Positions 1 through 59,224 of a stretch of 64,000 nucleotides of DNA are shown piece after piece. The translations under genes and the position numbers were made by a program. Location of the stretch: the NCBI GenBank assembly GCA_008632985.1, contig QPGO01000133.1, forward strand, positions 62,001 to 126,000, in the 5' to 3' direction. Source of the DNA: Psammoneis japonica. Taxonomy: Eukaryota. How positions within the stretch are numbered: the stretch's first letter is position 1; every line of letters begins with the position of its first letter. A model generated the notes under the pieces. It saw nothing but the letters and a program-made list of their open reading frames with translations. It was not told the DNA's origin and did no database searches.

Positions 1-1
1 T

Positions 2-500
2 TAGATTCTGATTGGTCTGAGAAGCAACTGAAAGAAACGAAGCAAGGCGTGCTTCGGTGCTGACGGGAGCCAAATTGCATTGTGTGACTCCGGCTGAGAT
101 TGGTTCGGACATCATCACAAAAGGTAAGTTGTTTTCTTTGTTGTGCGGGAACTCGAGCGCATCCCCTTTCGGAAGAGTGAGGGTTGCTTTGTTTCCTCGT
201 ACGTGACATTCACCTTGGTTTCCATTCTCTTGAAAACAGGCTTGAGGGCTGAAGAGTCGAATGGAAGCGTCGGGAACACAGTGGGCTCGCGTTCGGACGG
301 TCCGGATTACATTCCAACAATCGATTGCGTCCCATTCCACGAAACCTTGACCAACTGCTCGGGTGCTGGAGGACAATCCGTTGATGGCAGTGGCACCAAT
401 GGGTTCTAGCGGTCCTGCAAAGTCACCCAAGTGGGGTGTGAGCGACGAAGATGCTCCTGTGTCAAGAACAACAGGTGCGTCGACAGGTGGGCACGATGTC
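2..500 (-). pseudogene. Copia pol, aspartic protease region (not in the ORF track because it runs off the edge)
   Basis: Manual translation: VDAPVVLDTGASSSLTPHLGDF...VGQGFVEWDAID...RTRAHCVPDASIRLFSPQACFQE...SQTNQNL. DTG at 455-463. AHCVP and PQACF stand where AYYVP and PQAYF are expected. Confidence 0.8.
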
Positions 501-1684
501 AATGCTTGACATTGGCGGCCTTCGAGATCTCTTGTGTCATTGAAGGATTTGATGTGCTGCGTTGGATCATCGGTCAACCATGGTGGGTCCGGCTTGGATG
601 CAGCGACGTGAGATGGACCTGTCGTGGTCTGGTGAGAGAACATGGCTGCTCCACCGAAACCACTCGTAAAGGTTGCTGTTGTCGTGCGTGACAGGTTGGT
701 TGCGATGCAAGAGAGCGTCGGCGCTTGACCACAAGCTCGCAACATTTCGGAAGAGGCAAGTGTCTTGATCAAATGGAGCTGTTCTAAAGGATCAATGCCT
801 TGAACAAATTCGTCTAACGAACAACCGCACTGCATGTCGCACATGATCCAGGTTTGGTGTAACAGTCGGTGCTTGATGCGGTAGAACTCTTCTAGTTCGA
901 AAGCTTCAGGGTCGTCTGGAGGTGCAAAAGGTGAGGGCTCCGTTCGTGTCGCGGAGCTACGAGGTTTGGTCCTCAGGTGGTCACCTGGAGGATCAAGCAA
1001 AGTGACGAAATCAGTTAAAGTCGCACCATGAGGAAACTCGTACATCTCGGAAGGTAGATGCAACAGGCGATGTTTGATTTGAGAATGGGCTTCTGCGGCC
1101 TCTTGTTGAGGATCGACGCAGGCAAATCTGGGTGGTCTCGTTTTCCCAGGTTTGAATCGACATCTCGATCTTGAGAGTTTCCACGACTTGGATTTTCGAC
1201 AGGAGCGATCCGGATCGGCTGCCGTTGTGTTGTCCGGAACAGGAGTTCGGCGCTGTTTGCGCCAAGTCGTTGGATGAAGGAAGGACCACAAGGGGTCTCT
1301 GCGTGGGATTCGAACTGGGTGCCGATCCAAGTGGCGAACCTGAGAATGATGTGTGATCCGAGTTCGATCAGGAGGACGACGAAATGAGGTCGGTTCGACA
1401 GCAGGAACAACAGCAAAGTCGGGAAGATCGTCGTGTGAAAGCGAAGGATTCTTGGAAAAGAGAAGCAAGCAGAACAAACATCCACCTGCTAAAACAAACA
1501 GCAACTGACAAATCGACGAAACTGCTTCGATCCCTCCCTCTCCAAGAATCTGGAGAGTGAACCACAGGAGCAAAAAATGACCAACCGACAAATGAGCCTG
1601 GACATCCCTTCCAGGAGCGGACGGTTGGTTGAAAAGGCAAGAAGAGAGGGCCACACGCTCAGGAGAGGAGGCGTGCCCGAAGCT

Positions 1685-3169
1685 TCAGGTGAAGGAGGCG
1701 AAGAGGCCGGACACAGTTTCGACCATCTCCTTCTTGGCATTGGCAATGGCGAGGTCACGATCTGTGACGGGAGCGGAAGCCGGTGCCGGAGCGGGCGCAG
1801 CGGCCGGAGCGGGAGAAGGTGCAGCGGCAGGAGTGGAGGCAACGTTCCCCGTCTCAGTCACCGGGTGCCAGCGCTTGGTTTTGCAATGATGGCAATGATC
1901 CTTGCCATCAATGTTGCGGCGACTGTCATCACTCTTTTCGGCTTCAGTCGGTGGCTGCCATTTCTTGGGAATGGTCTTGGCAGAGGGACCGGAAGAGGAG
2001 GATCCCGAAGAGTTGTTCTTGCGTTGAGCTCGTTTCGTGTCAAAGAAGAGCTTCTTGTTGGCACGAACACGAGCGTCGTCGACCGGTGTCTTGCAGTCAC
2101 ACAAAGGATGAGGGCCGCCACAGTTAAAACAAGTGACGACTCCCGCAACGAACGAAGTTGCTTGTTTCTTGGCAGACACGCCGGACCACTTGTCGGAGGA
2201 GACAAGAGCGAGACACTCGCCTTTGGCAAAGAACAAAATGTCATCCACCGCAGCAGTCGGTGCTGCAGTCGTCGAGCCCGATTGCTTGAGTTTGGAGGTC
2301 TTGGAGTCCTTGGTGAGGTGCTCGAAGAGAGAATTGAACTCGGGAACACTCGACGTTTGAAAGACTTTGGTGAGATTCTCCAGAAAATCAGTGGGAATGA
2401 CAGACTGTCCTTTCTGATCCTGGAGATTAGCGAGGCGAGAACAGCCACCGCGAACAAGAGGTGCGACTTTGCTTGCATCTTCTCCATCGAAGTCGGTGAT
2501 CTTGAGGTTGGTCATGTTGGAAACCAAACAACGAGCAGCCTCTTCGGAGTTGCTCTGAAGGAGTTTCATCATGAGAACGAAGAAAAGAGGTCCGCCCTGC
2601 TCTTCCTGATCACATTTGAGGTGCGTCTCGTTGACCTTCTTCTGCAGTGCAACGGACGCGTTCCGCTCGAAGCAGTCGTGAGCAAGACGAAGGTTTTGGC
2701 TCGCCCAAGTCCCACCGGGGTCCTCGAGCATGGTTGAGTGCCATTTGTTGCTTGCGGCGACCTCCGCTGCGGTGATCGTGGAGCATTCCTTGCAAAGATC
2801 ACGCGTCGTGAATTTATCTGGGTCGATGATGGTGAAGACGTCATCCATGTCACACTTGACATGGTTCGAACGCATGGTTGAAATGGACATCGCGAGGTCA
2901 CAAGCATCCTCGAGCTTGTCAGGATCGTTGATGTTGACGTTGAGGAGGTCAAATTTTGTCTGCTGTTTTGAAGTCGCCTTCAGAAAGAGATCGTTGAGCT
3001 TGTCAGGATCCAGCCTGTTCCTCTGCGCCTCAGTGTAGAGGGCAGTGAGAGTGTCTTGCGACGCTTTCGGCGTTGCGCGGACTTTCACCTTCCGTCCATC
3101 AATGGTCACCTCGGACATGCTGGCTGGCGGAGAAGGAGGGAGTGGAATGCTCGCTGCTTTGCTCGGCAT
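1685..3169 (-). pseudogene. Copia gag-like protein with zinc knuckle
   Basis: 494-aa ORF with CFNCGGPHPLCDC knuckle and EQGGPLFF motif. Only one Tyr in the whole ORF. Confidence 0.8.
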
Positions 3170-3642
3170 GCGAATTGCGCGAGAAAGTGCAGATTCTTCG
3201 GATGACGGTTAGTTGAATTGTCGCTGTCCGTGCGGATGTGTGCGCGTTGTTCTGCAATGCGAAAGACAGTTGCTTGACGGTCTTGGACAGCAACAGAGCG
3301 TCGAAAGTTCCGGATTTCGTCAGTTATGACGACTCGGTCGCCCACACGAAAATCCGCGATGGTCAGCTCCCGTGTGGTTGAAGTAGAAGTGCGAGCGGCT
3401 CCGGCTCACGTTGGCGCAGTGAGGCGATTCTGCCGTTCTCTTTCTGCGGCAATGCGACGAACAAGCTCCACTTCTTGAAGTTGCAGGGCTTGTAGTTGTT
3501 CAATGAGGTCGTCAAGTGTCGCAGAGTTCCTTTCGGACATGTGCAACACTCACGTAGAATTGTACGTAAAGAATGTACGGAGCTCACTTCTCGTCCACCG
3601 GAGAGAAAGAGATGAGCGCAGGAGTGATCAAGCGTGATGCTT

Positions 3643-3654
3643 GGGCTCATAACC
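3643..3654 (-). promoter_or_regulatory. Primer-binding site of the copia tRNA-iMet-fragment type
   Basis: Minus strand reads ...ATCGCA|GGTTATGAGCCC, directly after a CA end and upstream of gag. Confidence 0.75.
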
Positions 3655-3774
3655 TGCGATAACTCTCGTCTGAGAGTCAGGGGAAGTCGACTGAGGTCGA
3701 ACAATAGATGTGTCGCTGGCGAAGAGGGCCAACGATAACGGTGTGATTGGTAAAGCTGCTAATGTCTTGTTACA
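3655..3774 (-). repeat. Putative 5' LTR of the Copia element (~120 bp)
   Basis: Minus strand starts TGTAACAAGAC and ends TATCGCA next to the PBS. The second LTR is outside the window, so the outer edge is inferred. Confidence 0.5.
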
Positions 3775-3985
3775 CTAGATGTTGTAATTGTGAGAAAAGT
3801 TGAAAAAGACCGATGGCGGGAAATCGCATGCGTAAGTGAGCGCGCGCGTATCGCGCATGAGTTCGTACTGTGTTGACAAACGGTTGATGAATTTCGCTTC
3901 TTGCCACGTTCAACGCGTTGGCTTGAACCATCAAAAATGATACAAGGAGAAACAAGGGGATTCGTGGTGTTCTAGCACTACTCAT
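3775..3985 (-). pseudogene. 5' fragment of a paralog of the K+ channel gene, cut at the Copia edge
   Basis: MSSARTPRIPLFLLVSFLMVQANALNVARSEIHQP aligns with MSSAITQRISLLILVSWLMVQVNALNVASSIHQP (start 34815). DNA ~3881-4045 matches ~34714-34875, including upstream sequence. Confidence 0.7.
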
Positions 3986-9120: not shown

Positions 9121-9668
9121 GAGCGGAAGGTGTGGGAGACATGAGGGGCAGCAGGAGGCATCGAAGTGGCTGCTGAATCAGAGAGAGATGATGGCAAAGG
9201 TGTGTGGGAGAGAAAGAGATGGCAAAGGGTGGCGGGACCACAGCAACGTCAGGAGCACCAAAAGAGTTCTCAAGGCAGTGGTCAATGCACAGAAGAAATT
9301 TGTCAAAGGAAAGCAGGGAGGCAGGAACCTGATGGACAAAAGGAGCGGGGAGTTCAAGGACAGCCACTTCACAGTCACAGAGGCGCTTGCAAATGGAGTC
9401 AGCAAGGGCTGGGGATGGTGTGCAAATTCTTGGATCAACGGCACAAGCAAGTGCCAGGAAGGGAAAGAACAATGGGTTGAAAGTGGTGCCAAGCTTGTGA
9501 AGGAAGCAGTGGACCCAGGGAGGTCAGGAAAATGATGGGAGTCTTTTGGGAGAGCAGGGGGGGACCAAGGGATCAAAAAGAGGAAAGGCAAAATGGGGCG
9601 GCAGTGGAAGGATCACAATCGGAGCAGGAAGAAGATTCAGATGGGCAGCAAGCAGAGGTGTGGGGTGG

Positions 9669-10102
9669 TGTGCAGTGTGCCTCGCCACTGGACAACACGG
9701 CGAGACCGTGCATGAGCCTCTTGTGCGTGGCAACGCAGTGTTGTTGACACGCACCTGGGAAGCACGACCACAGGAGGGCGTGGCTCTAGGTCTCAGGCAA
9801 TTCCAGAAGGATGCTAAGAGAGCATCCGTGTGAAGCACACTGGCCCGTCGTCTGGCCCACGATGGTGGCGTGATTCCACACGATGACATCACTCGTGCAC
9901 AGTGCGTGATGGCTTGATTCGCACGATCCACAATGTGAGTGCACGATCGATTTGATGCAATCCAAATGTGAACGAACAGGGATTTGGCAAGATTCCCCAT
10001 TCACACGATCCCACTTTCTCCACTCTAAACTAGCTCACAATTTTCACAACGACAAAGTCGCAACACATCTTCTTTTTCAGTGCCTGGCACACACACAGGG
10101 CA
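9669..10102 (+). repeat. Gypsy 5' LTR
   Basis: Direct repeat of 13787-14218. Confidence 0.85.
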
Positions 10103-11789
10103 CAGCGACATTGCTCCCGCACGAAACTGCGAAATGTTGGCAGGACCGACAAATCTCAAAACGACCATGAAGAAGCGGATTGAGCCGCCGATTCCGTTTG
10201 CACGGCCGGAGAAGAAAGAGCCACAGCAGGGCGAGTGCCAGACGTTCAAACTGCGCAACAACCCCACTGATCCGGACAGTCCAATGCACGAGATGGGCAT
10301 TCCGTGCCTTTCTGCGGTTGCATGCGAGACACTCCCAATCTTTCTGCGCAACGTGGACCGTGTGCACGAAGGACAAAACATGACCACCGGGCCAGCAAAA
10401 TTTGCCCTTGTGCGTGACCTGCTGCAGGGCGATGCTCTGACGTCATTCAATGATGCCGCTGACAAGCAGGCATCCCAAACCAACGCTGCGTGCGCAGCAT
10501 GCGTCGCGAAGCTAAAGGAAAGCATCTTCCCACATGGGGCGGCACCATTGCAGAAGCGTCATCTGAGGCGCTTCATGCGCAAGCCCGCAGAGGTTTCCAC
10601 TCGTGACTGCATCGCGAGGGCTGTTGAAATCAACGGCCGCATCTCTCAGTTTCCACCCGTGACGGAGGATGGAGAAGCACCGGCACCATTGCCTGATGAC
10701 GAACTGTGCGACATGTTCGAGTGCGGTGTGCCGAACGCATGGCAGAAGTTCATGACGCTACAAAATTTTGACCCGTTGGCGCACACTGTCACCGAATTTG
10801 CACAGTTCTGCGAGCGCATCGAGCAGGTCGAGCTTGCCGAAGGCAACCTGGACCAACACACTGGGGTTCCACGTAAGCAGGGATGTAGAACAGACAATCC
10901 TGAGTCGTTGATCACGACCCAACCGAACACCCGCGTGAAACGTGTCAAGACTGGACATTCCAGCAACGGAGGCAGCAAGCCCAATGCAAAACCTCGGAAT
11001 GAGGAAGACATTGATGCTCTCATCAGATCGAAGGTCGAGGAGTTCTTTGCCAACGCTCAGAAAAAGCGCAAGGCACGCGAGGAGGAGCTCAATCACTTCC
11101 GCGACCTCAACTTAAGTGATTCCGAAGATTCGGACACTTGCCGACACGATGCAGGCAGTTTTAATGCATTGGATGAATGCATCAATGAACAACTGAATTA
11201 CCATCGTACACGTGTTGCAGGCCAATCCCGCAAACGAGTTAAAAAGACTCATCTTGCTCCAATCTTGTTCACAGCTATGAATGCTAAACATGGCAAGGGC
11301 AAGACTCAAACCATTAAGGCACTGCTAGATAGTGGCGCCAGCAGTGCTCTACTCGACAGTCGATACTGTAAACGTCTGCGAAGCCATTCAACGGCTGAGA
11401 CAAAATGGACTACGGTAGCAGGCTCGTTCAGTACGTCTAACGACTGTACCGTTAAATTTTGGTTACCAGAATTATCCGAAACTGCAGAACTTAAACATAC
11501 CGTCCACGTACACAACGGAAAGTTGGGCAAGTACGATATGATTATTGGACGTGACATTCTGGAGACACAAGGCATTGATATTGTCTTCTCTAAACAGATG
11601 ATAGAGTGGCCATTAGTCAATGGAGAAGTACCAATGAGGCACGTAGATGCTACGGTAGAAACCTCCTTCTATCTTCAAGATCCAGAAGCCTTATCTTCAG
11701 AAACCGACCGGATTTCGCGTATTTTAGACGCTAAGTACGCGCCGGCCTGCCTCAAAGACATAACGCGAGAGGCAATAGACTTTCTATAG
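10080..11789 (+). pseudogene. Gypsy gag plus aspartic protease
   Basis: TFKLRNNP...GQNMTTGPAKFALVRDLLQGDAL gag motifs; ALLDSGAS and YDMIIGRDIL protease motifs. Confidence 0.85.
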
Positions 11790-11806
11790 TTCAACAAAAC
11801 GACCTT

Positions 11807-13504
11807 TTGGCACTATTGAAACGCCATCAGTCCTTATTTGATGGGACATTAGGAGAATGGAAGGGAGAACCCTATCATATCCAACTCAAGGAGGGTGTAG
11901 AACCATACCACGCTCGTCCGTATAAAGTACCTCGTGCGTACGAAGCTACGCTACGTAAAGAAGTAGAACGCCTAGCACGTGTCGGTGTTCCCAAACGCGT
12001 TAACCGATCCCAATGGGCAGCTCCATCATTTATCATGCCGAAGAAAGATTTAACGGTGCGCTTTGTTAATGATTTCAGAGAGCTGAATAAACGGATCAAG
12101 CGATTGCCTTGTCCGATTCCTCACATCCAAGATGTGCCACTTGAGCTCGAAGGCTTCATGTGGGCTGCATCACTGGACTCAAATGTGGGCCATTGTCATG
12201 TCCGATTGGATGCTGATGGCAAGAAGCTCTGCACGCTCATCTTCCCGTGGGGCAAGCATGAGATGCAGGCATTGCCCATGGGATCACGCAACTTGCCAGA
12301 CATTTTCCAAGAACGCATGTCAGGCTCATTTGAAGATCTGTCGTTCGTTCGAATGCACTCAGATGACCTTCTCGTCGTGACGAAAGGCACCCATGAAGAT
12401 CACCTCAACAAACTTGAAGAAGTTTCATTGAGGGTCCAGAAAGCAGGACTAAAAGTTGACGCAACTAAATCTCACTTCTGTCAAACCCAATTAGAGTGCT
12501 TGGGTCATCTGGTCAACAGAGACGGAGTGCGACCAACACCTGACAAAGTCGACGCCATTGGGCGAATCGCGACCCCAGCCAATGAACGCGACCTGCGCTC
12601 ATTTGTTGGCATGGTGAACTGCCACCGTGACACGTGGATCAGATGTTCTGAAGTCTTGGCTCTGCTGACACGACTGGCAAGCGAGACTGTTGAGTGGGAG
12701 TGGACGTCCGTTGAAGACGAGGCGTTCGAAACCGTCAAACGGGTGACATCGGATGATGTTTCATTGTCACATCCTGATTTTAATGAACCCTTTGAGACAC
12801 ATGCCGATGCCTCTAAATGTCAATTGGGAGCAGTTTTGTCCCAAGACAATGAACCTGTCGCCTTTCACAGCAGAAAGCTCAACAGTGCGCAATTAAATTG
12901 TGCAACAACGGAGAGAGAATTGCTCACCATTGTGGAGACGTTGAAAGAATTTCGAACGATTCTCCTTGGTCATCGTGCAATTGTGTGTGCTGATCATAAA
13001 AATCTCATGTGCAAAGCACTCAATGCCGAGCGCGTTGTGCGCTGGCGGTCAACATGCGAAGAATGCGGTCCCAAATTACGTCATGTTAAGGGCACCCACA
13101 ACCTGGTCGCTGACGCTCTTGGTCGCCTTCGGCCAGCACCCAGCTTGCCTTCCGAGGCCAATCCGGATGTAAAAGACACTCCATTGAGTCGTCCTTTGCA
13201 TGAAGCTTTTAGTGCAGATGCTCAAGATGAGGCATCTCTGCCTGTTAGCTTCAAGCGCATTCAAAAAGCACAACAAAAGGACAAGCGCCTGCTCTCACGA
13301 GCTGAGGACTCGCCCGACTGCTCCATTCGCGCGTGTCGTGGGGGAGGGTCATCACGACAGTCAATCTGTCATAAGGACAAAATCGCAGCACCACAGTCAT
13401 TGCAGGTTCCGCCAACTGAATGGCGCCACGAGACACTGTGTCACCCAGGTGAGACACATGCGGAAACATCTGTTGCCCAGCACTTCTGCTGGCCTGGCAT
13501 GTAG
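11807..13504 (+). pseudogene. Gypsy RT, RNase H and integrase zinc-binding start, inactivated
   Basis: DFRELNKRI, FPWGK, LPMG, MHSDD (in place of YxDD), ADASKCQLGAV, AFHSRKL, ELLTIVETLKEFR, ADHKNL, NLVADAL, WRHETLCHPG. Confidence 0.92.
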
Positions 13505-13786
13505 AAACCAGAAAGCAGAAGCTTGTCCACTTAAACAACAAGCGTGAAAATCAGAAATGCAAGGAGCATCAATGTGCCGCAGGGCAATTGGCACTTGTCA
13601 AACAGGAGCAATCCTCTAAATGCGGTTCTGACAGCTGTGCAGGACCCGCCAGAGTTGTCCGTGTGTGTGACGACGGCACGTTGCGCACCCAGAACGGAGC
13701 GCTGACAGATGCGTGCAATCTACGGCAGATTGCACCCCATCACCAGTGAGACATCCTGTCACTTAACGGCCCTGATCATGGGGGAG

Positions 13787-14218
13787 TGTGCAGCATGCCT
13801 CGATGCTGGACAACACGGTGAGACCGTGCACAAGCCTCTTGTGCGTGGCAACGCAGCATTGTCAACACGTGCCTGGGAAGCACGACCACAGGAGGGCGTG
13901 GCTCTGGGTCAAGCAATTCCAGAAGGATGCCAAGAGAGCATCCGTGTGAAGCACACTGGCCTGTCGTCTGGCCCACGATGGTGGCGTGATTCCACACGAT
14001 GACATCACTCGTGCACAGCGCGTGATGGCTTGATTCGCACGATCCACAATGCGAACGCACGATCGATTTGATGCGATCCAAATGCGAACGAATGGGGATT
14101 TGGCAAGATTCCCCATTCGCACGATCCCACTTTCTCTGCTCCAAACCAGCTTGTGATTTTCACAATGACAAAGTCGCAACACATCTTCTTTTTCAGCGCC
14201 TGGTGCATGCATGGGGCA
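13787..14218 (+). repeat. Gypsy 3' LTR
   Basis: Direct repeat of 9669-10102, preceded by GGGGGAG. Confidence 0.85.
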
Positions 14219-38769: not shown

Positions 38770-41700
38770 GGTTCTTTTTCTTTTTTTATTGTTATTACAG
38801 AACAATCGCTTCTTACTATGATGCGAGAGACACACAACGCCAGATGCAACAGCAAATCAAACACCACGTACTCGTGTGTGTCGTCGACGAACCCTCTTTT
38901 TATTCTTGTCGTGTGTTTGCATTCGTATGTTCGTGTGTGTTGGTACTGCCTCTGTAGAATTCTACATAAAATTTCAAAATTCAATTGACTGACGACAGTC
39001 AACCACGTACCGTACGATGGCTACGTACGTACATGCTGGTAATTTTGCCACGTGAAAAAATGGCGGGAAAAATGAAAAAGGAACACGACACATACAAAAG
39101 AGCAGAGCACGGCCACACAGACAGACAAAAAAAAGTTGGGTGCTTTGAATGAAGATGCACGCATTGAAAATGGAGGGCAACATGTTTTTACATGACGGTT
39201 GTTTGTTTCTTACTTGGGAATGTCTTTTATGCACAATGTTTTGGTCAAGTCTGGTGTGACATGCACAAGCCCACAAAGGACATCATCCGCTGGCACTTGT
39301 GGCACAAATTTGGGGGTTTTCAGCCATGACACCCACCCACGCACATGGTGATGGCACACAACTGCCAGCAGGCCTGGTCCTTCAATGTGACTTGAGTGCC
39401 CTCCATGTCAAAAAAAAAGCCATGACAGCTTGAACATCCACAAGTTCATCAGCAGACGACTGCAGCACACAAAAGAGGCAGGAAGAAACCCTGGGCGCCA
39501 AGGCGAAGCACAGCATGGAGTCGGCAGGTTCGTCTGACTCCGGTGTCAGCACCAACTCTGCTTCATCACTTTGTGCCAGGAAGAGGAGCAAGACATCAAA
39601 ATCAAAATGAAAGTTGCCCAGCAGAGAACCACTTGAAGCTCCGAGACCAAGCAATTGACGCAGGAGAAAAATGGGAAACTTGGCCTGGAACAAAATCACG
39701 GTCTTTGTCCAATGAAGAAGCTTGTGTGTGTGCGTCAATTGTTGCCAAGCATTTGCATGATGAGTTGTTGCCTCCATTGAGTGGATGTCAGTTGGTTGAG
39801 CCAGCCGAAGAAGGATGATGGAAAATCTCAAGGAGGTTGATCGTCTGGCGAAAACTCCGCCCAGAATGTGAGGGCCAGGACAAGATTGACGGGGAGTGGG
39901 CTGTGTTTGATGAACAAAATGGGGGGGGGACAAGCATGCAATGCTCTGTTGCTGCAGCAGCACTTTGGTTTGAGTCTCTGATGCCTGCGGAATGGCCCAG
40001 CAGTGATGGCATGCAGGAGGCCTCAAGATTGCAAAAATGGGCGCCAGCCCCAGACTCAAAGCCAAGCAACGAGAGGAAGCTGTGGCTGTTTGAGTTGTGG
40101 GGATCATTGTGAAGATGGACTGGTGAGGGACAGATGGGAGGCCAAGGATGGAGGACAGATGGATGATGTGACAAGATCCCAGACATGTCCAATCCACCCA
40201 CAGTTCACTTGGCAGAGTCAGCATCAGAGGGGTTGCAACTGTGGTCCACTGTGGCAACCATGTCTCATTGCAAAATTGTCACTCTGGTTGCAATCATCAA
40301 GGTTCTGAGAGGTGACATGTGTCCCCCATGTGTTTCTTGTGTCAAACTCTGTGCTTGTTGTTGGTTGACCATTGTTGGAATGGTTGGCGGTGGTGGCCAC
40401 GCCAAGAGGTGGGCAGAGTGGAGGACAGAGCTCTGGAGGGTGGAAGATGTGGCATGCTCTTTGTCAGTGGTGGTGATGATGATGGGGCAATGGGGGGTTC
40501 TCCAAATGACCATGGAGGCATTGGGTAAAGAGAAAGTGTGTCACACAGCAGCTTCTCACAAAGAGCGTCCATCTTGTTGGGGGCAGAACCTGCAACTTTC
40601 CACAGATCCTTCAAAGAGTGAGCCAAGCAAATCAGACCATGCCAGTGGCAGCTGGATCATTGCCACGCCAATGGTCTTTGACAAAATTGCAGCCAGCAGT
40701 GATCTTGCAAACATTGGTCCCATGATGATGTGAACAAATGTCAATGGATGGACAAATTGGACCAAAAGGTCTGGAATGATGACCTTTGCTGAAGCAGGCT
40801 CAAGCCAGAGCAAGGTCCACTCAAGTGGAGATGACGAGTCCATGTTTTCCCACAGCTGACAGCTCAAATTTGCTGTTTTGCCACAGGATCGTTCCCCTTG
40901 AGTTTGACAACCATGAGCCACAGGGCACATGCTTGGGAATGTGCTTGCCATTGTGTGATGGGGGCTCCTGTGTGGCACCTTCTTTGCATGTCACATGGGA
41001 GCCCAACTTGCATGTGGCCTTGTGCGGGCTTCCATGTTGCCCACAAATGTGCCCCTCAACTGAGAAAAAAATCATTGGAGAGTGTCTCATGAAAACTCTT
41101 TCTTCTCAAGTCATGTTGCAAGTTCAAATGAAACTTGCACAAAGGATCGATGAATGCACTCAATGGGTGCTGTCATCAGCCACAGTTTTCATGTTGGAAG
41201 CACCTTCTTGAGGATGAGAACTTGGATGATTTGCAGATCTTGCAGCAGCAGCAGCAGCAGCAGCAAAAGAGCCAGCGCTGGCTTCTGTTGTCACAGACAA
41301 ACCAGCGGCAGTGACAATGGAGTCAGCAGCAGTGGCAGTCATGACAGGTGCCAATCCACTGCCAGCTGCAAGAACCAAAACAACCAACAACATCTGGTGC
41401 ACCACCACAAAGTGCAGCTGCACAAGCCAAGGGTTCAAACTCTCAAATTTGTTGAATTTCAAAGAGAAAAAAGTTTGCAGTGCCATCCGTTGTCCGTTGT
41501 CATTTCATCCCAGGGGAACAAGAAGATGCGTGATGCAGCGCAGCACCATCATCTGTCCTGGTTCCTGGTCCACCACGATTGGGTGCGAGGTGCAAAAACC
41601 AAACAACAACACCCAAGAGAACACTTGTGCTGGAGGCCAACGTCATTGTTGTGCTGGGGCATGCACTGCACTTCCTCCAACAGCAAGATGTTGAATTGAT

Positions 41701-44399
41701 GCTGCACTTGAGCTTCATTGGAACACAAACAAGTGTGGCGCACCACAAACACTGCTTTGCATTTTGGACTTTCCATGCAGCAAAACAGACCAAGCCCTCT
41801 TTGGAAACTGAGACCTGCAGTGCCAACAAAAAAAATGCCAGGTGGAAACCGAGCAGATTGTTCCATCCCTTGCATGAGAAGAATGACAAAATGCAGAAAC
41901 GAACGGATGATTGAAGCCAGCCAAGTGGGTGAACTGGTGGGAACGTCGTTCGTGTCAGGCGCAGCCCCTGTTTCCCGACAACTTGTTTCTGTTGTTTTCT
42001 TGAAAAGCGTGCCAGTTGGCTGTGGTTTTCAGGGACGAGGCAACAAGAGAGCAACTGCCGGCGTGCTTTGGCCAGGGAGGGTCACTTCAAGGACCAAAAA
42101 TCAGGGGCTCGCATGGGGCTGAAACTCATGGTGTGAAAAAGGTCAAGTTCGAAGAGTGCGCATCCTGCAAGGCAACTCTGTTGACGGCCAAACACAATCT
42201 TGAAGCTGATGATGGGGAAGAGCACATCCGAGCATGTGTTCAATTCACAGAGACCGGTGCGACAGATGTTGCAATGCCTGATGGAGGCTGCAAGCTGACA
42301 GATTGCATCCAAGTGCAACCTGCGACTGAGGACATTGCGGCAATTCATGCACAAGATGATGATGTTTCTTTTGGCACCAAAGAAAGGGCTGCAGTGCACA
42401 CCATCACCAAGGTGTCTCTTTCCTGTTTGTCCAAGCCCCAAAGACTTTTGAGCTGAAAAGGGGGCACAAGATCGGAGTGGCTGTTTGTCGCTTGCATGAC
42501 ATTGGCCACAAGGATGCCGAAGCCCCGTCATTGATGGCTTGGTGGCTGGGTGTGGGCCAAGGCAACAAGCCTGCATTCACACGGGAGAAGTCACAGAAAT
42601 TTCTGAGAACGGCAAAACCTTTGGTCACAATGTCAACACTTTTTAAGGTTGCTCTGGTGCTCTTGTCTTTCTCCTTGACAAAGGACAGCCCGACAATTTG
42701 GGTTCAGACTTGTGTGGCCTGGCAGTTGGTGTTCACAGTGGGGGGCTCAACATCAGCAACAACCTTGCGTTTGAGCTGCTTTAACTGCTGTCAAGATGGA
42801 TTCCTGGCTGCTTTGCTGCCAAAATTTTTGCTGGCTCAGATTGCCAGCATGTCTTGTCATGCCTGCAGAGACCTGTCTGTGGAGCCGTCTGTTTTTTCAG
42901 GGACACAACACACATCAGCTTCTGCATTTTCAGGTTGAGCCAAAGAAGAAGGAACAGATTGTTTTTTGTGCTGGTGAACAGTGGTGTCATGGCAGGAGGT
43001 GTGCACAAAACTGAAGAGGGGGTCTGAGAATCTGGGACAATCTTTGCACACAATCCACCAAACACTGCAGGAGAGGCACTGGAGTGAAAATGCCCATTCA
43101 CAGGGGCACTTGTCAAAAGAAATTTGGGGCACAATTCCTGGCACTGAGGGCACTGGAGCAACTTTGTGGGGCAGTTTCTGCACAAAACACAGCAGACAGT
43201 GAAGCAGGGCCACAGCTTTGAAGGACATGCTGGAGAGAGCTGGCCTGAACACAGTGTCGGGTGGGTTCTGGCTGGGTGGAGTGTGCGCCACAATGGGAAA
43301 ATGACAGGGTGACAAAACAGAAGATGGCAGGTGCTGCAAAAAATTGTGCTGATGGGCAAAGGCATGTCATCAACAGAGAGGACATCACTGCAAGGAAAGG
43401 AGGTGGCAGCACCTTCAAAGAGGGGCTGGAAAGAACAAATGTGATGCAGAGCAGAGAGCAGCTCACAACAAAGGATGCTCTCACATTGTCGTGCAAGACC
43501 AAGACAGGATTGACACGCTGAGAGAGCCAGCTTCACCCATGCAGACTGGCCCAATGGAGGGATTTGATGACAACACAGACTTCCACATTGGCAGATCAAC
43601 CTCACTTTCTCCTCACAGCTTGACACACAATGTTGCAGCAGCAGGCCCCAGTCTGCATTTTCATCTTGTTTGGCAAAACTTCTGCACACACTGTCATTCA
43701 AAACGGCTTCTTTGCAGCCTTGCAAGAGCTTGCACTTGAGTGTCACAACAGGCAAGCCACAGATGAAGGGATTGCCCAGGTTTGCAACTTTTGTGATGTC
43801 TGCTTTGAGAGGTCTGTTGCTGTCAAAGCAGAAAAGGAGGATGACTTCAACCATCATGTCAACAGCTTGAGGAGCATTGGCCAAGGAGACTTTGCCAAAA
43901 CTTGAGAAGCCCTGCAAGCTGCTCATTAAATTTCAGTCATTTGCATTTTCTTTGACACATTTCATCATTGTGACCGATGTTTTCATTGTTCCATTTTTTG
44001 CCAGAAAAAGAATTTGAGAATTTTGCAGCTTCTCCTCATGCCTTTTGCTGATCATGGCTGATCTGTTGTTTGTTGGTTGTCACGTGGTGACGAATGTTGT
44101 GTGACAGGAATGAAACGTGGTGGTGCAATGCTCAGATCAGTTTGCTGTGTTGTCATCTGCATCACATTGTTCATTTTGTGACAGGTTTGGATGGATGCTG
44201 GACAGACGGAGGGAGAGTGCGTGGTGTTGGGTGCTGCAGCGTGCGTGCGGCGCATGTGAGACATGGAAAGAACATGGCAGAAATTGGTGATGAGTGCATC
44301 ACATTGTGTTTTTTTTCAACAGAGCGTTGCATGGAGTGCAACAAACAGTTCACAAATGCAGCCAACATGAGCAACAACAGAAGTGCAAAAATCACAGAC

Positions 44400-44790
44400 G
44401 ACGCGTTCCAGCCCCAGGGTGGGACTCCGTGTGACATTGGGCCCGTAGAATTCTACGTGCGAGCTCCGTAGTACGAGAATTTAATCAATGGATATATTTG
44501 TCTTCAACATCAAATAAACGGCCAAGTTTGTGGTACAATTATGCCTCTTACCACTCGACGTTTTTGCAAATGCGCCTGCCCTACGCGATTCTTATGACAT
44601 TATAGAATCGCGCTGTAACAAAAAATGTCAAAAGTTGTTGGACGGATCGCTCAATAAGTGTACCGTAAAATGACACAAAATGTCGAAAAAATCACGTAGA
44701 AATCTACGTGCGCGACATACGACGTGATTCAAAAAACTGTCGATGTCACAGTTCAGCAGTGCGAGGTCCCACCTAGACCTGGAACGCGTC
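44400..44790 (-). mobile_element. MITE family A copy, well preserved, TSD AGAC
   Basis: GACGCGTTCCAG...GGTGGGAC TIRs; AGAC at 44396-44399 and 44791-44794; TA-rich interior. Confidence 0.92.
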
Positions 44791-46249
44791 AGACCCCCCC
44801 CTTGACCATGCTCATGCCATCCTCACAAAAAAGCAAGCCTCAATTTTCTCTCCCTGCTTCTGCTGCCACCTTCTTTGTGCTCCACACATGGAGTGCACTG
44901 GAGGTCATTTCTGGCCACCTCAGATGTTGCTGCTTGCCTGCTGTGAACTTCTGCTCTTTTCATCTTTTCCTTCTTTTTTGTCGCCGTTTCCTCCCGAGTG
45001 ACTGCAAATGACTGCATTTTGCATTTAACCCCTACATTTTACGCACACAAAGCATGCAGTCATCATTCAAAGACACATTTCTCAGATGAACAATTTCGCG
45101 TTGAAGCATGTCCAAATTAAATGCGAAACGATGGCGACTGTTGCAGGGCGGCAGACACATCAGATGCAGATGAGGGGTCATGCCATCAGTGTCGAACAGC
45201 AGCGTCAGGACCCAAATGATCCTGCGGAACAGCCCATGGCTGTGGAAGGCACCCATTTTGACAGAAGTTAAATGGGGGCAAAGTCATCGCTAAAATTGGT
45301 CCTCTGCGCAGAACTCCGCACGCGTTCATCTGTCCATCGCCAGTTCGCGCCAACATTTGGGGGAATGAACGAGTGGGCTGGTGTCTGCATCCTGAGTGAT
45401 CAATCATCGCAGATGAAGCAACAACGTCTGCTCCAACTGTGCAGAGCAACAAGAGACAACAACCAAGCACATGACAGCTCGCAGACACAGTCATTGAAGA
45501 GACACACTAATTCAACAGGAGATTTGGGCGTGTGCAAAAGCACAAATTTCTTGTGTGGTTGTGCATTTTCACTTCGATTGAAAAAAAAAACACGTTCGGG
45601 AGGAAACTGTTGAAATCCAAGTTGCTTGTTCTGTGCTGCTTGGCACCTTGCAGGTGACTGCGTGCATTCTTGAGCCGCCACCCTGCTGGTCAAGGCTGCG
45701 CCAAGTTGACTTGCTTCTCTTTGTGTGTGTGTGTGTGTGTGTCTTCTTCTTGACTTCACTCATGTCATCAGTTGTGCATTGAAACAGTTCTTTGTGAGGC
45801 AGATCTTGGCATCGCCAAAGCAGTCTCACAATTTTCCCCTTCTGGCATTTTCTTTGCCTCTTCCACCAGGTTCTTCAAGGCAAAGCTCACACCACCACTC
45901 TCCTCTCTGTGTGGGCTCTTGCCACCCCCCTGGCTTCTTCTTCTTGCTCTGTGCCTCTTGCAGCCACTGGCAAAGTGGCCAGACACTCTGTTTCTGCACA
46001 AGCTCCTTGCGTGCATGTTGCACTTTGTCTCACATGTTGTTCCTTGTCCTTGCGTGCAGCTGCCTTGCTGGCACTTGTGCAGTTGTTGGGTCTGCCCACT
46101 TTGACATCTGGGTTGCTTTTGCAAGCCGACTCTTGTTTCGCTCAAGCACACCAGGTGAATGAATGCTGCACAGGATGAGTGTGTCTTGCAGTGTGTCACA
46201 CAGGGAGTGTGCCCCCTGCTCTCTGGCCAAAGAGCTGAAAGAGGGTTGT

Positions 46250-46680
46250 GCACCTGACAAGCGATGAGAGCAGATGTGTTGCAAAGTGCTGTTGTGAAAA
46301 TTGTGAGCTGATTTGCTCCAGAAAAAGTGCGGTCATGCAAACAGGGAATCATGCCAAATTTCCTTTCACTCGGGTGTTTTGCACTGCATCAAAACCATCG
46401 CTGTTTGTGCGCCATGGATTGCACGGATCAGGCCATCACATGTCTTCCACGAGTGATGTTGCTGCCACTGGGGGCAGACAAAGTGTCAGTGCCATGTGCG
46501 CAGATGCTCCCAGCATTCCTCTGAAATCTCCCAACCAAGCCAAGGAGCCATGCCCCTTCCTTTTGGATCGTGTTCTCCCCCCCAAGGTGCATCTGAGCAC
46601 AGTGCTGCTCTGCCGCACACCAGAGGCCAGAGGCCAGTGCACAGCCTTGCCACTTTGGCCAGCAGATGTGTGCTGCAATG
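46250..46680 (-). repeat. Diverged solo LTR related to the Gypsy LTRs
   Basis: AGATGTGTTGC..GTTGTGAAAATTGTGAGCT, GGGAATC.TGCCAAAT, GCCATCAC, CACGAGTGATGT and GATGCTC are colinear with the reverse complement of 9669-10102. Ends approximate. Confidence 0.65.
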
Positions 46681-48391
46681 GACCTCTCCAATGACGCACA
46701 TTTTGCCTGAGTGAGCAACCTTTTTTCTTGTTGTTGGTGTCAGGGGAGACACCCACCCATGATCTCCAAATTCTTTGAAGCTTGAGTGACAAAGGTGGAG
46801 ACCTTGCTGTTTGAAGTGTGGCAAAGTGGCCTTGATGATTTGAGCACTTTGCTTTTGTTGCCACACAACAAAGTCTGGCAGGCAAAGAGCTCTGTCAAAG
46901 ATGGTTGGCTGCTTGGCCACAAAAAGAAGCACACAGGCACTTGTCAGTTGATGACAAAGCTGTCTCACAGCATCACAGTGATTGGAGTGAATGACTTGTC
47001 TGTTGTGGAGAAAAGGCTGAGACAGATTCAATTGTGTTCTGTTGGCTCTGTCTTTCTTTAGCTCAACATTGCAGCGGGGACAAGATGGCAAAACTGTGCA
47101 GCCAACAACGAACCAACCTTGCAGCTGCAAACACAGCCCCATTGACAGATCCTGGGTGCTCCACCTGTGTTGCTTGGTTGCCTGAACAGAGAGAAGGCAC
47201 TTCAAAAATTGGTGCACAAGCCCAACACCAAACTGAGTGCCCCACAGAAACAAAGCAAAAGACAGACATGGCAGGGTGACTGACAAACAAATTGGCTGCA
47301 GCAGGTGAAGACAGGATCACAGTGCAGTGCTGCACGCATTTCAGCACAGATTGGAGACCAACAAAGACAGTGGTCTGTGCCCCCCATGCAAGTGCAGATT
47401 TGTCTTCTGCAATCTGCTTCTGTGCAAACATCTGGTGCGCCAGAAGCTTTTTCTCATGATGTCAGGCTGCAATGTTGCTGAGCTCAAGTGTGAGTTTTGC
47501 CTTCTGACAATGTTTGGGTGCTGTCATCCTTCCATTGGATTGGAGCCAATCTGGCAACGTGGCAACCAGATGTCATGGAAGGGCTGTTGTTTGTGGCGGG
47601 GGATCTGGTGTGGCAGAAGATCGGGCAAAAAAACTGGGCAGTGTGTTTCTTCGTTGTTTTTTTCCAACAACCTTCAGAAGCCATGTGTGTTTGAAATGAA
47701 TGTGAGGGATTTAATGGTGATGCTCACTTTTTTTCTTGCAACCAGGGGCCGCTGTGGCTTTGATGTTTGTGAAAACTTGCTTTGCAGCTTTGCTCTGCTG
47801 CCAACTGCGCACGAAGAAAACAGCAGTGAAGCATGTGGGTCAACCACCAGTGCTCCATGTCATTGAGGTGACACCCACATGATCAAGTTCATTGCTTTTG
47901 TTCTACAGAGGTTATTTTCATCACCACAAGGTGACAACAATTGTGCCGTCGTGGGCGCTGAATGTCATGTTGGTTCGACAGCGATGCGTGCATTATCATG
48001 GCGAAATCCGGGAAATGTTTTTCTACCTTATTCGTATCGATAGTTTTGAAAAGAGTATCAAATATATCAATATTTTGAAAAGAACATAAATAACCGCTTA
48101 TTCGTATGACTGCATTACATATATATGAATATTCACTTTCCCATGATAGAACCACAGTAATTCCAAACAATACATAGAAGTTTGATAATACTGTAGTCCT
48201 TTCAACGGCTATCGAAAAACGGCAATCCGGCGGGTGCGGCCGAGGGATTTTGTGAAGCGTTCAGCCCGCCTCACCGCTCAGCCAGAGTGAATAACGCAAC
48301 GCATTTTTGCCGCACCTACTACCAGGTAGGTAGCACCTATTTTGAGTAGTCTATCCCAATTATCCGCCTATCACTTGAATTAGATTGCGAC

Positions 48392-49800: not shown

Positions 49801-52563
49801 ATGCTAGAGTGAACGTTTCGCATTGTTTATTCCTTCGTTTCGCTAGCTTTAATTTATTTGAGTTTTACTCGTTTTCTTTGATCATGCTTTCACTGATGCC
49901 GACTAAGGAGTTGTTTGTTCTTACAGCTTTTGCCTTGTTTCCAGAGCGACAAGAACTGTGCTGCTGTAACAAGACAAGCTTTCACATTGCTGTGCTGATG
50001 TTGAACTAGTCTAGTTGTCGCTTTTACATCGTTTTGTGTAAGGTCGGAGAACATGAAAGTGTTCTTCAAGCAGGGTCTCAAACACTCGCTTCTTCAAATG
50101 GCATGGTGTGCGTCTCTGAAGAACTCGGCCAAGAACAAACACGAAACTCAAAGGGTCCACACAAGCCATGCATTTAACGACTGGGAAAGCTGCAGATGGC
50201 ACCCCTTCCAATGCCAGAAACTGATTAAGTGTCACATTTGGGGTTTCCTCCAATCCCAGCAACACTCGTTGGCGTGGCCTTGGGTTGGTGAATTGGGGTG
50301 TGTTTTTCTCTCCTTTTTCATTTGGCACTCTTTTGTGCCAAAAATCACTTGTGAGACACCTCCTTTGCTGTGCTTTGCATGGCTCCACAGCCACAAAATG
50401 TTGGCAAATGAGCATGACTGCCTTCAAAAATGTTGTCCTTTGCAGCCACCCCACACTGTGAAAATGGGCTCCAGCAATTGATCACGTTTTGTGGTGTTGT
50501 TTTCTCATGCTGTTTTTGCACTTGTTTCACAAGCTCCTCAAGCCATTTGGCTGTGAAGCAGTTCACTCAATTGCTCCCATGCATCATCAAGTGTCAGAGA
50601 GCAGTGGGCACTTGGACAAAAGCACACCAGATGAGATGCCTTTCCATGTCAGAAGCAGCAGTTGTGCATTTTCCTCATGTTGCCATCATGGCAAGAAAAA
50701 GTGGCCTGGTGTGTGCACTGACTTTGAAGCTTTGGCATTTGCAGGGGTCTGTGGAGAAACACAAGAAAAAACAAAAGATGGCCAAAGAGACAGATGCATG
50801 GACAAAGACATGACAGTGTGTGCACATGAATCAACCTCAACCACCAAAAATGGTCTGCATGTCATTCACAGCTCCACAGCCCCCCAGTCAGGGGCAATGG
50901 CAACACATGTGTTGCTCTTGTCACAAAGAGCTTGTTTCTCATGTGATGCTCCATTGCAGGAATGTTGGGTGAGTGCTTGCACACACAAACAACAACCCAG
51001 CAATGACCCAGCAGCAACTGCAGCACACAGTTGTTTCCATGCGAGGGTCTGCATCTGCACAAGATTGACAAAATGTCAACATTTTTGTTTTGTGTGTCCA
51101 CCACAGACAGCTGCTCCTTCAAGTCTCTTTGTTGCTCTGCACAGGACTTGCAAAAGCTCTGGCCACCCAGCTTGTTTGTGACAACAACAACAACAACAAC
51201 AACAAGTGTCCAAATGCCCCCAAACATGGAATGGACAAAGGGCCTGCCCCCGCATCTGTTGTCACAGCCAGCACTGGATCAACACCATCATCATTTCTTC
51301 CCTTGTGGGCTGGGCATGAAAGTCTGTTTGGTTGACAGTGAAGGCTGCACAACCACTTTTTTGCAAGGTTCCACAGCTGCTGAGCACAATTTTGCCAGAC
51401 TTGACTTGATGTGCAGATTGTCAAAGAGGGTTGAGCTGATCAAAAGCTTGGTCAGCAAATCAAGAATCAGTGTTCAAAGCTCATCTTCCAGCAGCACATG
51501 CCACATTGCAGCAGCAGTGCCACAGTCATCTGGCACATTTCCATTGTGCCCATTTTGAGTTTGGTGCATGCCTCAGTTTTCCACATTGAGCATTGTCTGT
51601 CACACAAAAGATGTGGCAAAGATGATGATGACAGCTGAGGCAATTCTGTGAACATGAGCTGCGATGCTGAGTGTCAAAGCTGGTGCAGCCAATCATGCAG
51701 CCAAATCCAGCAGCTCAAACTGGGAAAGAGGCTGCAACCTTTTTTTTCTGTTGTTGGTGCTGCCATGTGCTCACAACACTCTCATGCACCTGTTTCAGCA
51801 GCTGCCAAGAGACACTTCTTCAAGTGGCAGTTCTTGGGCCATGGACACATGTGGGCTTTCATCTGAGAAGTGCCCTCACTCAGCACAGTTCCATCCGGCC
51901 TTCATGCTGGACCTGCTGAAAACCACTTTTACAAACCACCACAAAAATTGCACACCATGACGACTGCCGCTGACATGCCATCGTGTGTGGCTCAACAACC
52001 TTTCAGTGTTTTCTGATGCCACTGACAGACTCGGTGGTGTGACTCTTTCATCTCAGATCACCAGGGTGGCTTCAGCATTGTCACAAAATGTCACAACCAT
52101 TAAAAGAAGGCATCAAAAAGTGTGTGGTGAATCTTCTCCATCAAACAGGGTTGCAGTCAAATGTGAGCTTGACATGCTTCATTCGACCATCAAGTCATGT
52201 GCAGCACGCATGATGGAAAGCTTTGTTGAACTGGGTTGTGCTGGAAAGTGTGCTCTTTGTGTCTCTTGCTGTGCCCGGTCTGTTGGGTTGAGAGGTTGTG
52301 ACTTGATGTTGTGCTGCACGGTGTGAAACAGCCAAAGGACTGAATTTGAGATGTGCTTGGTCTGTTTTGAGCAGCATTGCTGTGGCATTAGAGCTGTTCA
52401 AGGTTCTGTTGCTCACACAACCAATCCTCCAAACCCCAAGATCAATTCGGTGCATCATTTCATGCACCACAAGAAAAGCCCAGGTCAGCTCTTTGCGGAT
52501 GACGTTCGCGCCATTTCATGATCACGAACCGGCTGAAGATCTTGCAGAAGGAATGCAGGAGAT

Positions 52564-52637
52564 GACTGAAAGTCAAGAGTCTGCAAAGGAAATGATTTTT
52601 GACTGAAAGTCAAGAGTCTGCAAAGGAAATGATTTTG
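52564..52637. repeat. 37-bp tandem duplication
   Basis: GACTGAAAGTCAAGAGTCTGCAAAGGAAATGATTTT twice. Confidence 0.9.
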
Positions 52638-54699: not shown

Positions 54700-55620
54700 T
54701 TCTGCACTTGCCTCTCAAAAGAACTTCAAAAGGTCCTGCACGAAGGATGGACGGAACTGCTCTGAGTGAGGTTGCTTCTTAGATGAGCTTTGGCTGCAGC
54801 TTGAGACTCTTGCCAGCAGCCCTGCATTTCTTGGATGCAAGTGCTTGCCTCTTGCCAAAGCAGCAACTGCCATGGGTGCCCTTGTGGCATCAACAACAAT
54901 GCACAGCAGTGGAGTGCCAGGTCTGGGTCTTCTTGGACAAGGTCTTGGGGGCTTGGTGTGGCAGCACAGCCACTTGAGCATTTAATTTCCTTTTCCATTC
55001 TTGTCAAACTTTTCCTTTTGCTGTGGTCCTTTCCAGTCTTCTGATGTTTGTCTCCCTTGCCCACCTTGCCCCAAGGGCTGGGCTTCTGGAGCTGAGATTT
55101 TCTCTTGCTTTTGCTGGGGGTGTGCCCCACTTTTCCTTTTGTGAAGGAGAGCCCTGTGCTTGTTGTTTGCCAAAGTCATGAGCTGATCCACCATCAACAA
55201 GAAGTCATTTTCATCTTTGTGCACCTCTTGCTTGCACAAGAGCAGTGTGCTCAAGCAACAAATGTCTTGTCAGATGATGTCAAGCAGCCCTTGAAGAACA
55301 AACTGGTTGGCAAAGCTTCAGCAGTTTTTCCTTGCAAATGAAAAGTTGCTGGGAGCAGCCAGACTCATCAGCTGAGTGGCAATTGGGTGTCAAGTTCAGA
55401 CACAGCTCAGTTTGGGTTTCACTTGCAGCATGTCTCACATCTGAGCAGCTCTCCTGGATTGTGACCATGCCCATTGTAAAACAGGCTCTAAAAGCAAAGT
55501 TTTCAATTTTGTTCTGTCCTTCTCAGACCCTTGCTTTGACCTCTGTGCCTCTTTTTAGAGTGAAAGCATTGTGCAACCTTGTGCATTGCATGCTGTGTGT
55601 CTTGAGCTGCTTGGCTTGAA
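54700..55620 (-). pseudogene. Highly decayed Copia gag-like remnant
   Basis: Fragments LFFKGCLTSSDKTFV, QLMTLANNKHRAL and QEKISAPEAQ resemble gag segments LFKGY..SD..FV and LM.LA.NKY..L. Confidence 0.45.
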
Positions 55621-58600: not shown

Positions 58601-59224
58601 CCACTCTTAGAGTGGTTTTGGACAGTTTGCTCTTCCTGGAGGACAGGCCGGTTGGAAGTCAAGAGGACAGACCGGTTTTGTGTTTGCAGTGCACGGTGGG
58701 GCCCCACCAACGGTGCATTTTTCCAGACCGGGTGAGGCACAGACAGATGACAGAGTTTAAATTTAATCCCCATTGAGCTTTGAATGATTGTTCAAATTTG
58801 GAGATTGTGTTGTGATCGCGAGTCACCTTGTGAGCTGGCCGGCCTGCATTCATTTCAGTTTCTCCAAATCTTTTTTGTCAAGTCACCACGCGTTTTGCCA
58901 TGCTTTGAGTTTTTTCATTTGACGATGTTGCGTTCATCAAGATGGTGTCTTGGTGCCATGGTGAAATTGTCAAATGTTGCAAAGCAGCACTCCCCACCCA
59001 GCAATGAATCCGCTGCTGCATTTGTTGACGATTCTGCTGAACAATGGGACAGCGTTGTGGTTGTTGTGATGCACCAGCATGGTGGCATGGAGTCATTTTG
59101 CAACCTGATTCTGAGTCTGATTCAGGTGCTCCATTTCTTTGCAATTTGCTTGGGTTGCCTGAGAGTTCTCATGACAAGCTTTTGACACTTTGTGGTTTGT
59201 TGAAAGTGAAATTCATTTGCATGA

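Follow-up and report, generated by a model that had tools for sequence, protein, structure and literature searches.

Repeat-induced point mutation (RIP) of ascomycetes is a post-insertion, dinucleotide-specific process, which kills repeats by transitions on both strands and is linked to methylation. RIP changes C to T at CpA and thereby creates TpA. In contrast, A is changed to G at TpA and TpA is removed in the DNA described here, a stretch of 64,000 nucleotides from Psammoneis japonica (contig QPGO01000133.1 of assembly GCA_008632985.1, positions 62,001 to 126,000; in the following, the window). A Copia retrotransposon at its left end has lost nearly all TpA (TA) and kept most CpG (CG), and in copies of a Gypsy element, also present in the window, CG decay was concentrated where TA had been hit. 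The closest described system is that of Bigelowiella natans, in which integrated viral DNA is hypermutated at TpA (Mettrop et al., bioRxiv 10.64898/2026.01.13.699255).

According to the accessible part of this preprint, the TpA-poor sequences of B. natans are enriched for reverse transcriptase and DDE domains, and an adenine deaminase is proposed rather than shown (10.64898/2026.01.13.699255). Nearly pure A>G and T>C changes at TpA, on both strands and in bounded regions, are common to both systems. Segmentation delimited such regions in the window, and host genes were spared; its five host open reading frames (ORFs) contain 3.3-4.2% Tyr, with observed/expected ratios (o/e) for TA of 0.44-0.66. 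In those features that could be tested here, the process acting on TA resembles the mutator of B. natans. As far as the preprint text goes, the two differ in several points. The rate in B. natans was obtained from mutation-accumulation lines (about 1000-fold, in a subset of the lines), whereas here an excess of at least 200-fold relative to background transitions follows from sequence alone. Its targets are single-copy inserts of nucleocytoplasmic large DNA viruses and virophages; here multi-copy long terminal repeat (LTR) retrotransposons are hit. TpA is modestly depleted in B. natans, but driven to saturation here: TA o/e was below 0.25 in 380 of 795 windows of 500 bp (about 48%), taken from a genome sample of 398 kb (forty 10-kb stretches at round coordinates, mostly of large contigs). 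A rule for TAY (TA followed by a pyrimidine), a minor editing of nAY and the co-location with CpG decay were found only here. The terms 'CpG', 'diatom' and 'LTR' do not occur in the main text of the preprint, and the accessible part of PMC12344493 does not mention Bigelowiella. In the published work searched, with most subscription papers outside reach, neither TpA hypermutation in diatoms nor a coupling to CpG decay was found.

A preliminary description of the window had reported a Copia element at 1-3480 that is nearly free of TA and retains CG. This was borne out, with 23 TA (o/e 0.12) against a mean of 189 and a minimum of 158 in 2000 base shuffles, and 247 CG (o/e 1.02). The extent applies to the erasure only; the element itself reaches 3878, and its outer approximately 385 bp (5' LTR and leader) retain TA. 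The wording 'CG-rich' holds in the sense that CG is retained, but an o/e of about 1 is normal and about 10% of the CG sites are already gone. The Copia label proved right. RVT_2 (PF07727, E 9.6e-22) was matched just left of the window and identifies a Copia reverse transcriptase (RT); this domain, short TG..CA LTRs and a 5-bp target-site duplication are shared with the Ty1/Copia elements of diatoms (CoDi-like). Named homologues are from Nitzschia inconspicua and Cylindrotheca closterium (55-58% identity). The single Tyr of the gag product was confirmed as well; homologues have about 2-4% Tyr, whereas the Tyr codons of the window element nearly all read Cys or His. For the ORF in gag position neither a Pfam match nor a match among phage records was obtained. 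In the pieces scanned no Pfam match for integrase was detected; many homologues have PF13976 together with PF07727. The long intact frames mentioned for this element are weak evidence, because TA erasure strips TAA and TAG from all six frames, and pol of the window copy is in fact broken into several pieces, with HVDD as RT motif. The gag/pol stop (1685-1687) was observed at the equivalent place in several Copia copies. It therefore probably represents an ancient junction for read-through or frameshifting rather than damage.

A single young copy cannot show the speed of the loss, since a TA-poor sequence might be inherited. Further copies were found in the 91-Mb assembly; the ten longest of 18 matches were aligned, the six closest were used for site counts, and the state of each site was called solely from the remaining copies. 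The closest pair showed 78 double differences of TG and CA, for which the parent dinucleotide must have been TA or CG. The codon phase decides between these, as for Tyr: at codon position 1 a pyrimidine follows in 40/40 TA-type columns (Tyr, never stop), and in 51/82 CG-type columns (51 vs 31). The first residue of the RT motif was His in five and Cys in three of the eight copies where the motif was found; in 120 Copia homologues it was Tyr in 108, His in one and Phe in one, with ten not matched. At ten columns with Tyr in at least 60% of the homologues, the window copy has Cys (5), His (3) or Phe (2). All six Copia copies examined with both LTRs have their own target-site duplication. The LTRs of the window copy are 98.2% alike and all four differences are TA>CA/TG; in the copies on C22 and C95, 13/17 and 13/18 LTR differences are TA changes. 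One copy retains 1 and 14 TA in its equally old LTRs, with 13 TA hits in one of them. TG and CA are about equal in each copy, and strand runs were absent in 6/6 copies. The TAs existed at insertion and were then converted independently on either strand; that this happened after insertion and independently of the CpG chemistry is scarcely in doubt. A young Copia family (L148-L150; 3 of 10 loci, 98.5-98.9% alike) was found with TA o/e of 0.63-0.65, normal Tyr content and CG of about 0.9. It consists of repeats not yet reached by the mutator and shows the starting state; all that can be concluded from a TA-normal multi-copy family is that repetition does not by itself suffice at once.

TA survival in the six Copia copies was 0.099, 0.119, 0.148, 0.131, 0.086 and 0.089, and CG survival in the same order 0.905, 0.888, 0.874, 0.819, 0.723 and 0.454. 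TA survival is flat while CG survival falls. Thus, TA loss comes first and is no by-product of CpG deamination, in agreement with the preliminary description. The hits per site were 2.32 (TA) and 0.099 (CG) for the window Copia copy and 1.84 and 0.132 for the Gypsy hit zones. The resulting ratio of the rates, at least 14 (Gypsy) to at least 23 (window Copia), is a lower bound, because TA saturates. The Gypsy gag region had been described as likewise TA-poor with CG kept, and this was confirmed (9670-11100; TA o/e 0.11, CG 0.95). The plot of TpA o/e against CpG o/e that had been suggested is L-shaped in the genome sample; the two depletions do not scale together. Windows with CG of at least 0.8 and TA below 0.15 numbered 25 of 795, those with CG below 0.5 and TA of at least 0.35 only 4 of 795, and TA o/e drifts from 0.13 to 0.04 as CG falls. 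The late state is represented by two blocks that had correctly been described as lacking both dinucleotides and dominated by TG and CA: 39200-47880 (o/e: TA 0.07, CG 0.33, TG 1.73, CA 1.78) and 50100-61150 (TA 0.05, CG 0.24, TG 1.75, CA 1.77).

TA loss is not driven by age. In Gypsy copies that carry 0-2 private changes in the background, 66-84% of TA was converted, in the copy L078 with 16 such changes only 18%. The window Gypsy copy carries 6 background changes in 2804 sites. On a rough scale only, the mutation rate of Phaeodactylum tricornutum, given as 4.77e-10 in the accessible part of PMC6604790, would place it at a few million generations, which corresponds to no fewer than about 2e-7 hits per generation at each TA adenine. 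Sites differ strongly, with survival below 10% at 228 of 334 TA sites and of at least 50% at 40. A clock-like model predicted TA survival to fall from 0.26 to 0.04, whereas 0.10 to 0.09 was seen, but the drift of TA o/e in the genome sample points the other way; TA editing may have been a burst or continuous. TA loss is not usable as a clock, because it saturates early and depends on position, as the LTR pair with 1 and 14 TA left illustrates. The preliminary description is right on order and chemistry, not on independence, and TA loss behaves as a saturating switch.

Regarding the chemistry, TA-type columns read TG (2311), CA (2134) or CG (16), corresponding to A>G and T>C transitions; CG was lost in both directions, too (TG 333, CA 306). 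In hit zones 32/1438 RTAY and 448/1261 YTAR sites survived. Conversion was fastest in TAY, and TAAA and TAGA are nearly immune. The hazard per A was 0.92 at TA vs 0.007 at other A. Outside TA, A>G was fivefold higher in hit zones than in spared ones (0.0071 vs 0.0014), mainly at nAY, while A>C and A>T were not raised (0.0005-0.0007). Neither was C>T at CpH (0.0043 in hit zones vs 0.0069). The unraised A>C, A>T and CpH C>T, together with the rise of A>G at nAY, fit a deaminase better than an error-prone polymerase. RIP was rejected as an explanation, since CpH C>T is not raised in the hit zones and TA is lost. Per C, the loss in hit zones was 0.066 at CpG and 0.0043 at CpH; this factor of about 15 lies within the range of spontaneous 5-methylcytosine (5mC) decay. 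Nearby CG density was related to TA survival in YTAR only (0.43, 0.35, 0.22), not in the other three context classes. The context preference resembles that of TadA-type enzymes. A source for this likeness was not found in the accessible part of PMC11405849.

The two losses had also been called separate. This does not extend to their targeting. Gypsy copies from 20 loci (about 90% identity) were compared, 14 of which provided LTR pairs. A central patch with TA spared is present in twelve copies; seven are hit right across the centre, and one is spared over nearly its whole length. In all 20 copies, 40/1064 CG (3.8%) were lost in spared zones vs 599/4835 (12.4%) in hit zones, and in the same central columns 13/562 (2.3%) in patch copies vs 57/363 (15.7%) in fully hit copies. 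The window copy lost 2/42 CG in its patch and 33/265 in its hit part. With L078 left out, none of 2000 label permutations among the 19 remaining copies reached the coupling difference. Towards the patch, CG loss per 150 bp was 0.172, 0.108, 0.085 and 0.033, and 0.014 just inside, whereas the same border columns in fully hit copies gave 0.134-0.164. CG loss is thus already fading 150-450 bp outside the TA border; TA conversion across this outer rim is still 0.74-0.86. Hence, full CG decay covers a zone that is 150-300 bp narrower than the TA zone. No nucleosome-scale periodicity of CG loss was found in 309 columns (best period 212, p 0.44). The Gypsy LTRs lost 76/736 CG where TA survival was below 0.3 and 4/160 elsewhere. 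At the Copia ends, 4/128 CG were lost in six spared ends, 12/60 in three partly or fully hit ends and 19/25 in one older hit end; all three CG transitions in the LTRs of the C22 and C95 copies lie in the TA-hit LTR. TA editing and CG decay very probably share one territory.

Some observations on the shape of this territory were made in addition. At the ends of ten Copia copies, TA is usually retained over 200-400 bp where the adjoining DNA is TA-normal but not where it is TA-poor, with the exception of the 3' ends of the C95 and C2 copies. The spared patch, with wider limits of 11113-12089 in the window, always comprises the same part of the Gypsy element, from protease to RT start, with lower GC, in the window copy and 11 others. 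Its width varies from approximately 0.6 to 1.7 kb.

As best explanation of the whole we consider, with moderate confidence, two chemistries of very different speed in one silenced territory. A retrotransposon inserts with normal TA content. A host process then changes the A of TA to G, on either strand and site by site, and approaches saturation (85-91% conversion) by the time about 10% of CG are lost. CG turns to TG or CA slowly and past the TA plateau, largely within the TA-hit zones, with the hit zone 150-300 bp beyond full CG decay. The slow process would be deamination of 5-methyl-CpG, and 5mC is quite likely the source of the CG decay. If so, CG loss is a fossil methylation map, and spared patches and rims would have been mostly unmethylated. 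For the fast process a putative enzymatic deamination of adenine to hypoxanthine, read as G, is slightly favoured. The editor would be recruited to, or licensed by, the same chromatin; whether 5mC chromatin itself or another upstream signal is the gate seems to us evenly balanced. The rim may mean that the editor reaches further than the mark does, or it may be a lag in the wake of an advancing front. A general form of this scheme can be put forward only tentatively: in diatoms and other microalgae, CG-methylated chromatin might recruit a TAY-specific adenine deaminase that reaches about one nucleosome beyond it and strips a new transposon of all Tyr codons long before CpG decays, likewise in other organisms, and at least one Copia lineage might possess a mutator-proof His.

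Several points weigh against this explanation. The closest Copia pair agrees in the resolution of 140 of 208 sites, which is above chance; perhaps a third of the sites were converted in a shared parent or homogenised later. In L078, 23/299 CG (7.7%) were lost although only 18% of TA had been converted; the ratio is about 2.5, which indicates that CG decay can proceed without saturating TA loss. The correlation of CG loss with background divergence was only weak (rho 0.41, p 0.08, 19 copies). Since the patch borders were set from TA states, the TA edge is in part sharp by definition, and because copies within a family are kin, site counts are not entirely independent of each other. None of the genes examined was identified as DNMT5 (of two weak methylase ORFs one is DNMT3-like and one has no PDB match), nor did an editor candidate stand out; those deaminases that were found resemble housekeeping types.

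Two clocks that are independent in every respect, targeting included, which is the literal sense of the preliminary description, would account for the L-shaped relation, for the flat TA survival across CG ages and for L078. They are very improbable, as TA-spared DNA of equal age and sequence shows 3-7 times less CG decay, the coupling recurs in LTR pairs and at element ends, and CG-poor, TA-normal windows are nearly absent from the genome sample. TA poverty might also have been inherited, from a TA-poor master or through selection against UpA, or have arisen by editing of RNA or cDNA during retrotransposition. This is barely credible, although close copies agree in excess and in a different Copia family His was apparently fixed in the RT motif when the family spread: TG and CA are about equal per copy, invariant Tyr are destroyed, non-coding blocks are hit as well, and the LTRs of one insertion differ, one of them by its 13 hits, and are often oppositely resolved (in 14 pairs, 96 opposite and 164 same). 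These LTR-pair differences rule out an inherited TA-poor master as main cause. Editing by APOBEC or ADAR during retrotransposition was rejected, since no one-strand bias was observed and the edits are not common to both LTRs. The chance of an assembly or base-calling artefact is practically negligible. The DNA runs do come from one sample only, which is probably the assembly source, and run contigs that match TA-poor DNA (2156 bp, one difference) may be the assembly's own source and are thus not independent; but the borders inside single elements are sharp, the changes follow the codon phase, and the same exchange of Tyr, Cys and His occurs in Copia proteins of other assemblies.

An upstream signal (histone marks, small RNA or repeat pairing) could set the territory, with 5mC as no guide and CG decay perhaps enzymatic through a RID-like DNMT4. 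We regard this as unlikely, although it would explain the coupling equally well, agrees with a TA front ahead of the CG front and with the partial decoupling in L078, and could draw on a chromodomain that adjoins a C5-methyltransferase domain at locus L089. Diatom DNMT4 is related to fungal RID and in some cases has a chromodomain, according to the accessible part of PMC9998398. The per-C excess of CpG over CpH loss argues against this reading, and the single-copy targets described in the B. natans preprint make repeat pairing less likely, provided that the two systems are identical. Both losses could also form one chain, in which repair of deaminated 5mC opens patches and a Pol eta-like error-prone fill misreads T in TA. 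Spatial coupling and the slightly wider TA zone would be expected from it, and AA, the second-best context here, belongs to the WA hot spots of Pol eta. Transversions at A are not raised, however, strand-coordinated runs are absent, the 3' pyrimidine rule is strong with TAAA nearly immune, and TA survival in resistant contexts hardly depends on local CG density, YTAR excepted; this chain is improbable.

Transposable elements of diatoms, Copia-like ones included, carry CG methylation by DNMT5a (Hoguin et al. 2023, PMC9998398). Such CG-context marking is the expected substrate for slow CG>TG/CA decay; in the accessible part of that study adenine hypermutation is not mentioned. In P. japonica 27 of 29 scored C5-methyltransferase candidates matched PF00145; one methyltransferase is DNMT3-like and one chromodomain-linked (L089). 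Searches for deaminases gave five matches to PF14437 and four to PF02137, the latter in two genes. At L096-L099 (G000 C40, C79) two separate A_deamin (PF02137) genes were observed, and a second A_deamin paralogue beside ADAT1 is a possible candidate editor. Furthermore, C5-methyltransferase copies at L086-L088 (G000 C301, C297) are TA-erased (TA o/e 0.07-0.10, CG about 0.7) and perhaps carried by a mobile element.

In the 120 Copia homologues, an exchange of conserved Tyr for Cys or His was found at 2-6 positions in four and at none in 112. Members of the P0094 and P0112 clusters differ mostly by Tyr/Cys, Tyr/His or Cys/His (for example 10/17 differences). For P0112 no match above 58% was found in the P. 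japonica genome, and for a P0094 cluster member no match at E 1e-60, which is weak on its own. Copia copies differing mainly by Tyr, Cys and His were noted for P0094, P0112, P0036, P0086 and clusters P0121-P0134. Thus, to judge from the proteins, the process is probably active in other organisms. The Copia protein P0052 has 0.77% Tyr, and its conserved Tyr columns read Phe (7/13), a different route to Tyr loss. In a different Copia family of P. japonica (e.g. L146, L147, L151; 67 pattern matches) the RT motif was HVDD 67, CVDD 8 and YVDD 2 times, with 59 His, no Cys and no Tyr in the main subgroup among the matches listed. The codon before the motif splits into GTG and GCA in this subgroup, like a mutated TA site. 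His seems to have been fixed before this family spread, which may be a natural variant, the mark of a non-autonomous lineage or a counter-adaptation.

To our knowledge, neither the enzyme nor the targeting signal of the sole published TpA mutator is known. From the locus described here the order of events can be read, together with a candidate for the gate, as the mutator shares its territory with CpG decay. If true, DNA methylation would be linked to a second, adenine-based killing of transposons, a mirror image of fungal RIP. In such genomes, dating by LTR divergence, the calling of ORFs and the annotation of repeat proteins are misleading unless TA sites are masked. Moreover, a natural adenine editor acting on double-stranded DNA would be of interest to the base-editing field. 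The coordinates of the features are listed in Table 1.

Table 1 Features of the P. japonica window referred to in the text
Feature	Position	Strand	Remarks
Copia element, 5' half	1-3878	-	Whole element 7735 bp, G000 C134:58144-65878
TA-erased, CpG-retaining Copia interior	1..3493	.	Ancestral-type TA kept 11/106 (50 TG, 45 CA); CG kept 128/144
Start of pol after in-frame stop	2..1684	-	LDTGAS motif, which we take to be protease-like
ORF in gag position	1685..3169	-	494 aa from first Met, 1 Tyr; assigned by position in the element
Leader behind 5' LTR	3494..3654	-	TA still present; inner edge of spared rim
Copia 5' LTR	3655..3878	-	224 bp, TG..CA; 11 TA, 19 CG; TA largely kept
Target-site duplication, 5 bp	3879..3883	.	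Same 5 bases beside 3' LTR left of the window
Gypsy element, coupling test	9661..14203	+	LTRs 9661-10087 and 13779-14203, 90% alike; RVT_1 and RNase H
TA-spared patch in Gypsy	11326..11973	.	Wider compositional limits 11113-12089
Late-state block without TA and CG	39229..47904	.	TA-normal repeat island within, 44446-44775
Late-state block without TA and CG	50040..61158	.	29/39 surviving TA are YTAR

TA-normal, AT-rich islands lie in the erased blocks of the window at 24988-25428, 31044-31379 and 44446-44775; the second and third match a repeat family of about 400 bp that is present at other loci. Duplicated sulfotransferase genes (86% alike; 48353-50341 and 61996-63936) flank an erased block and are TA-normal, an example of a host duplicate that was not hit.

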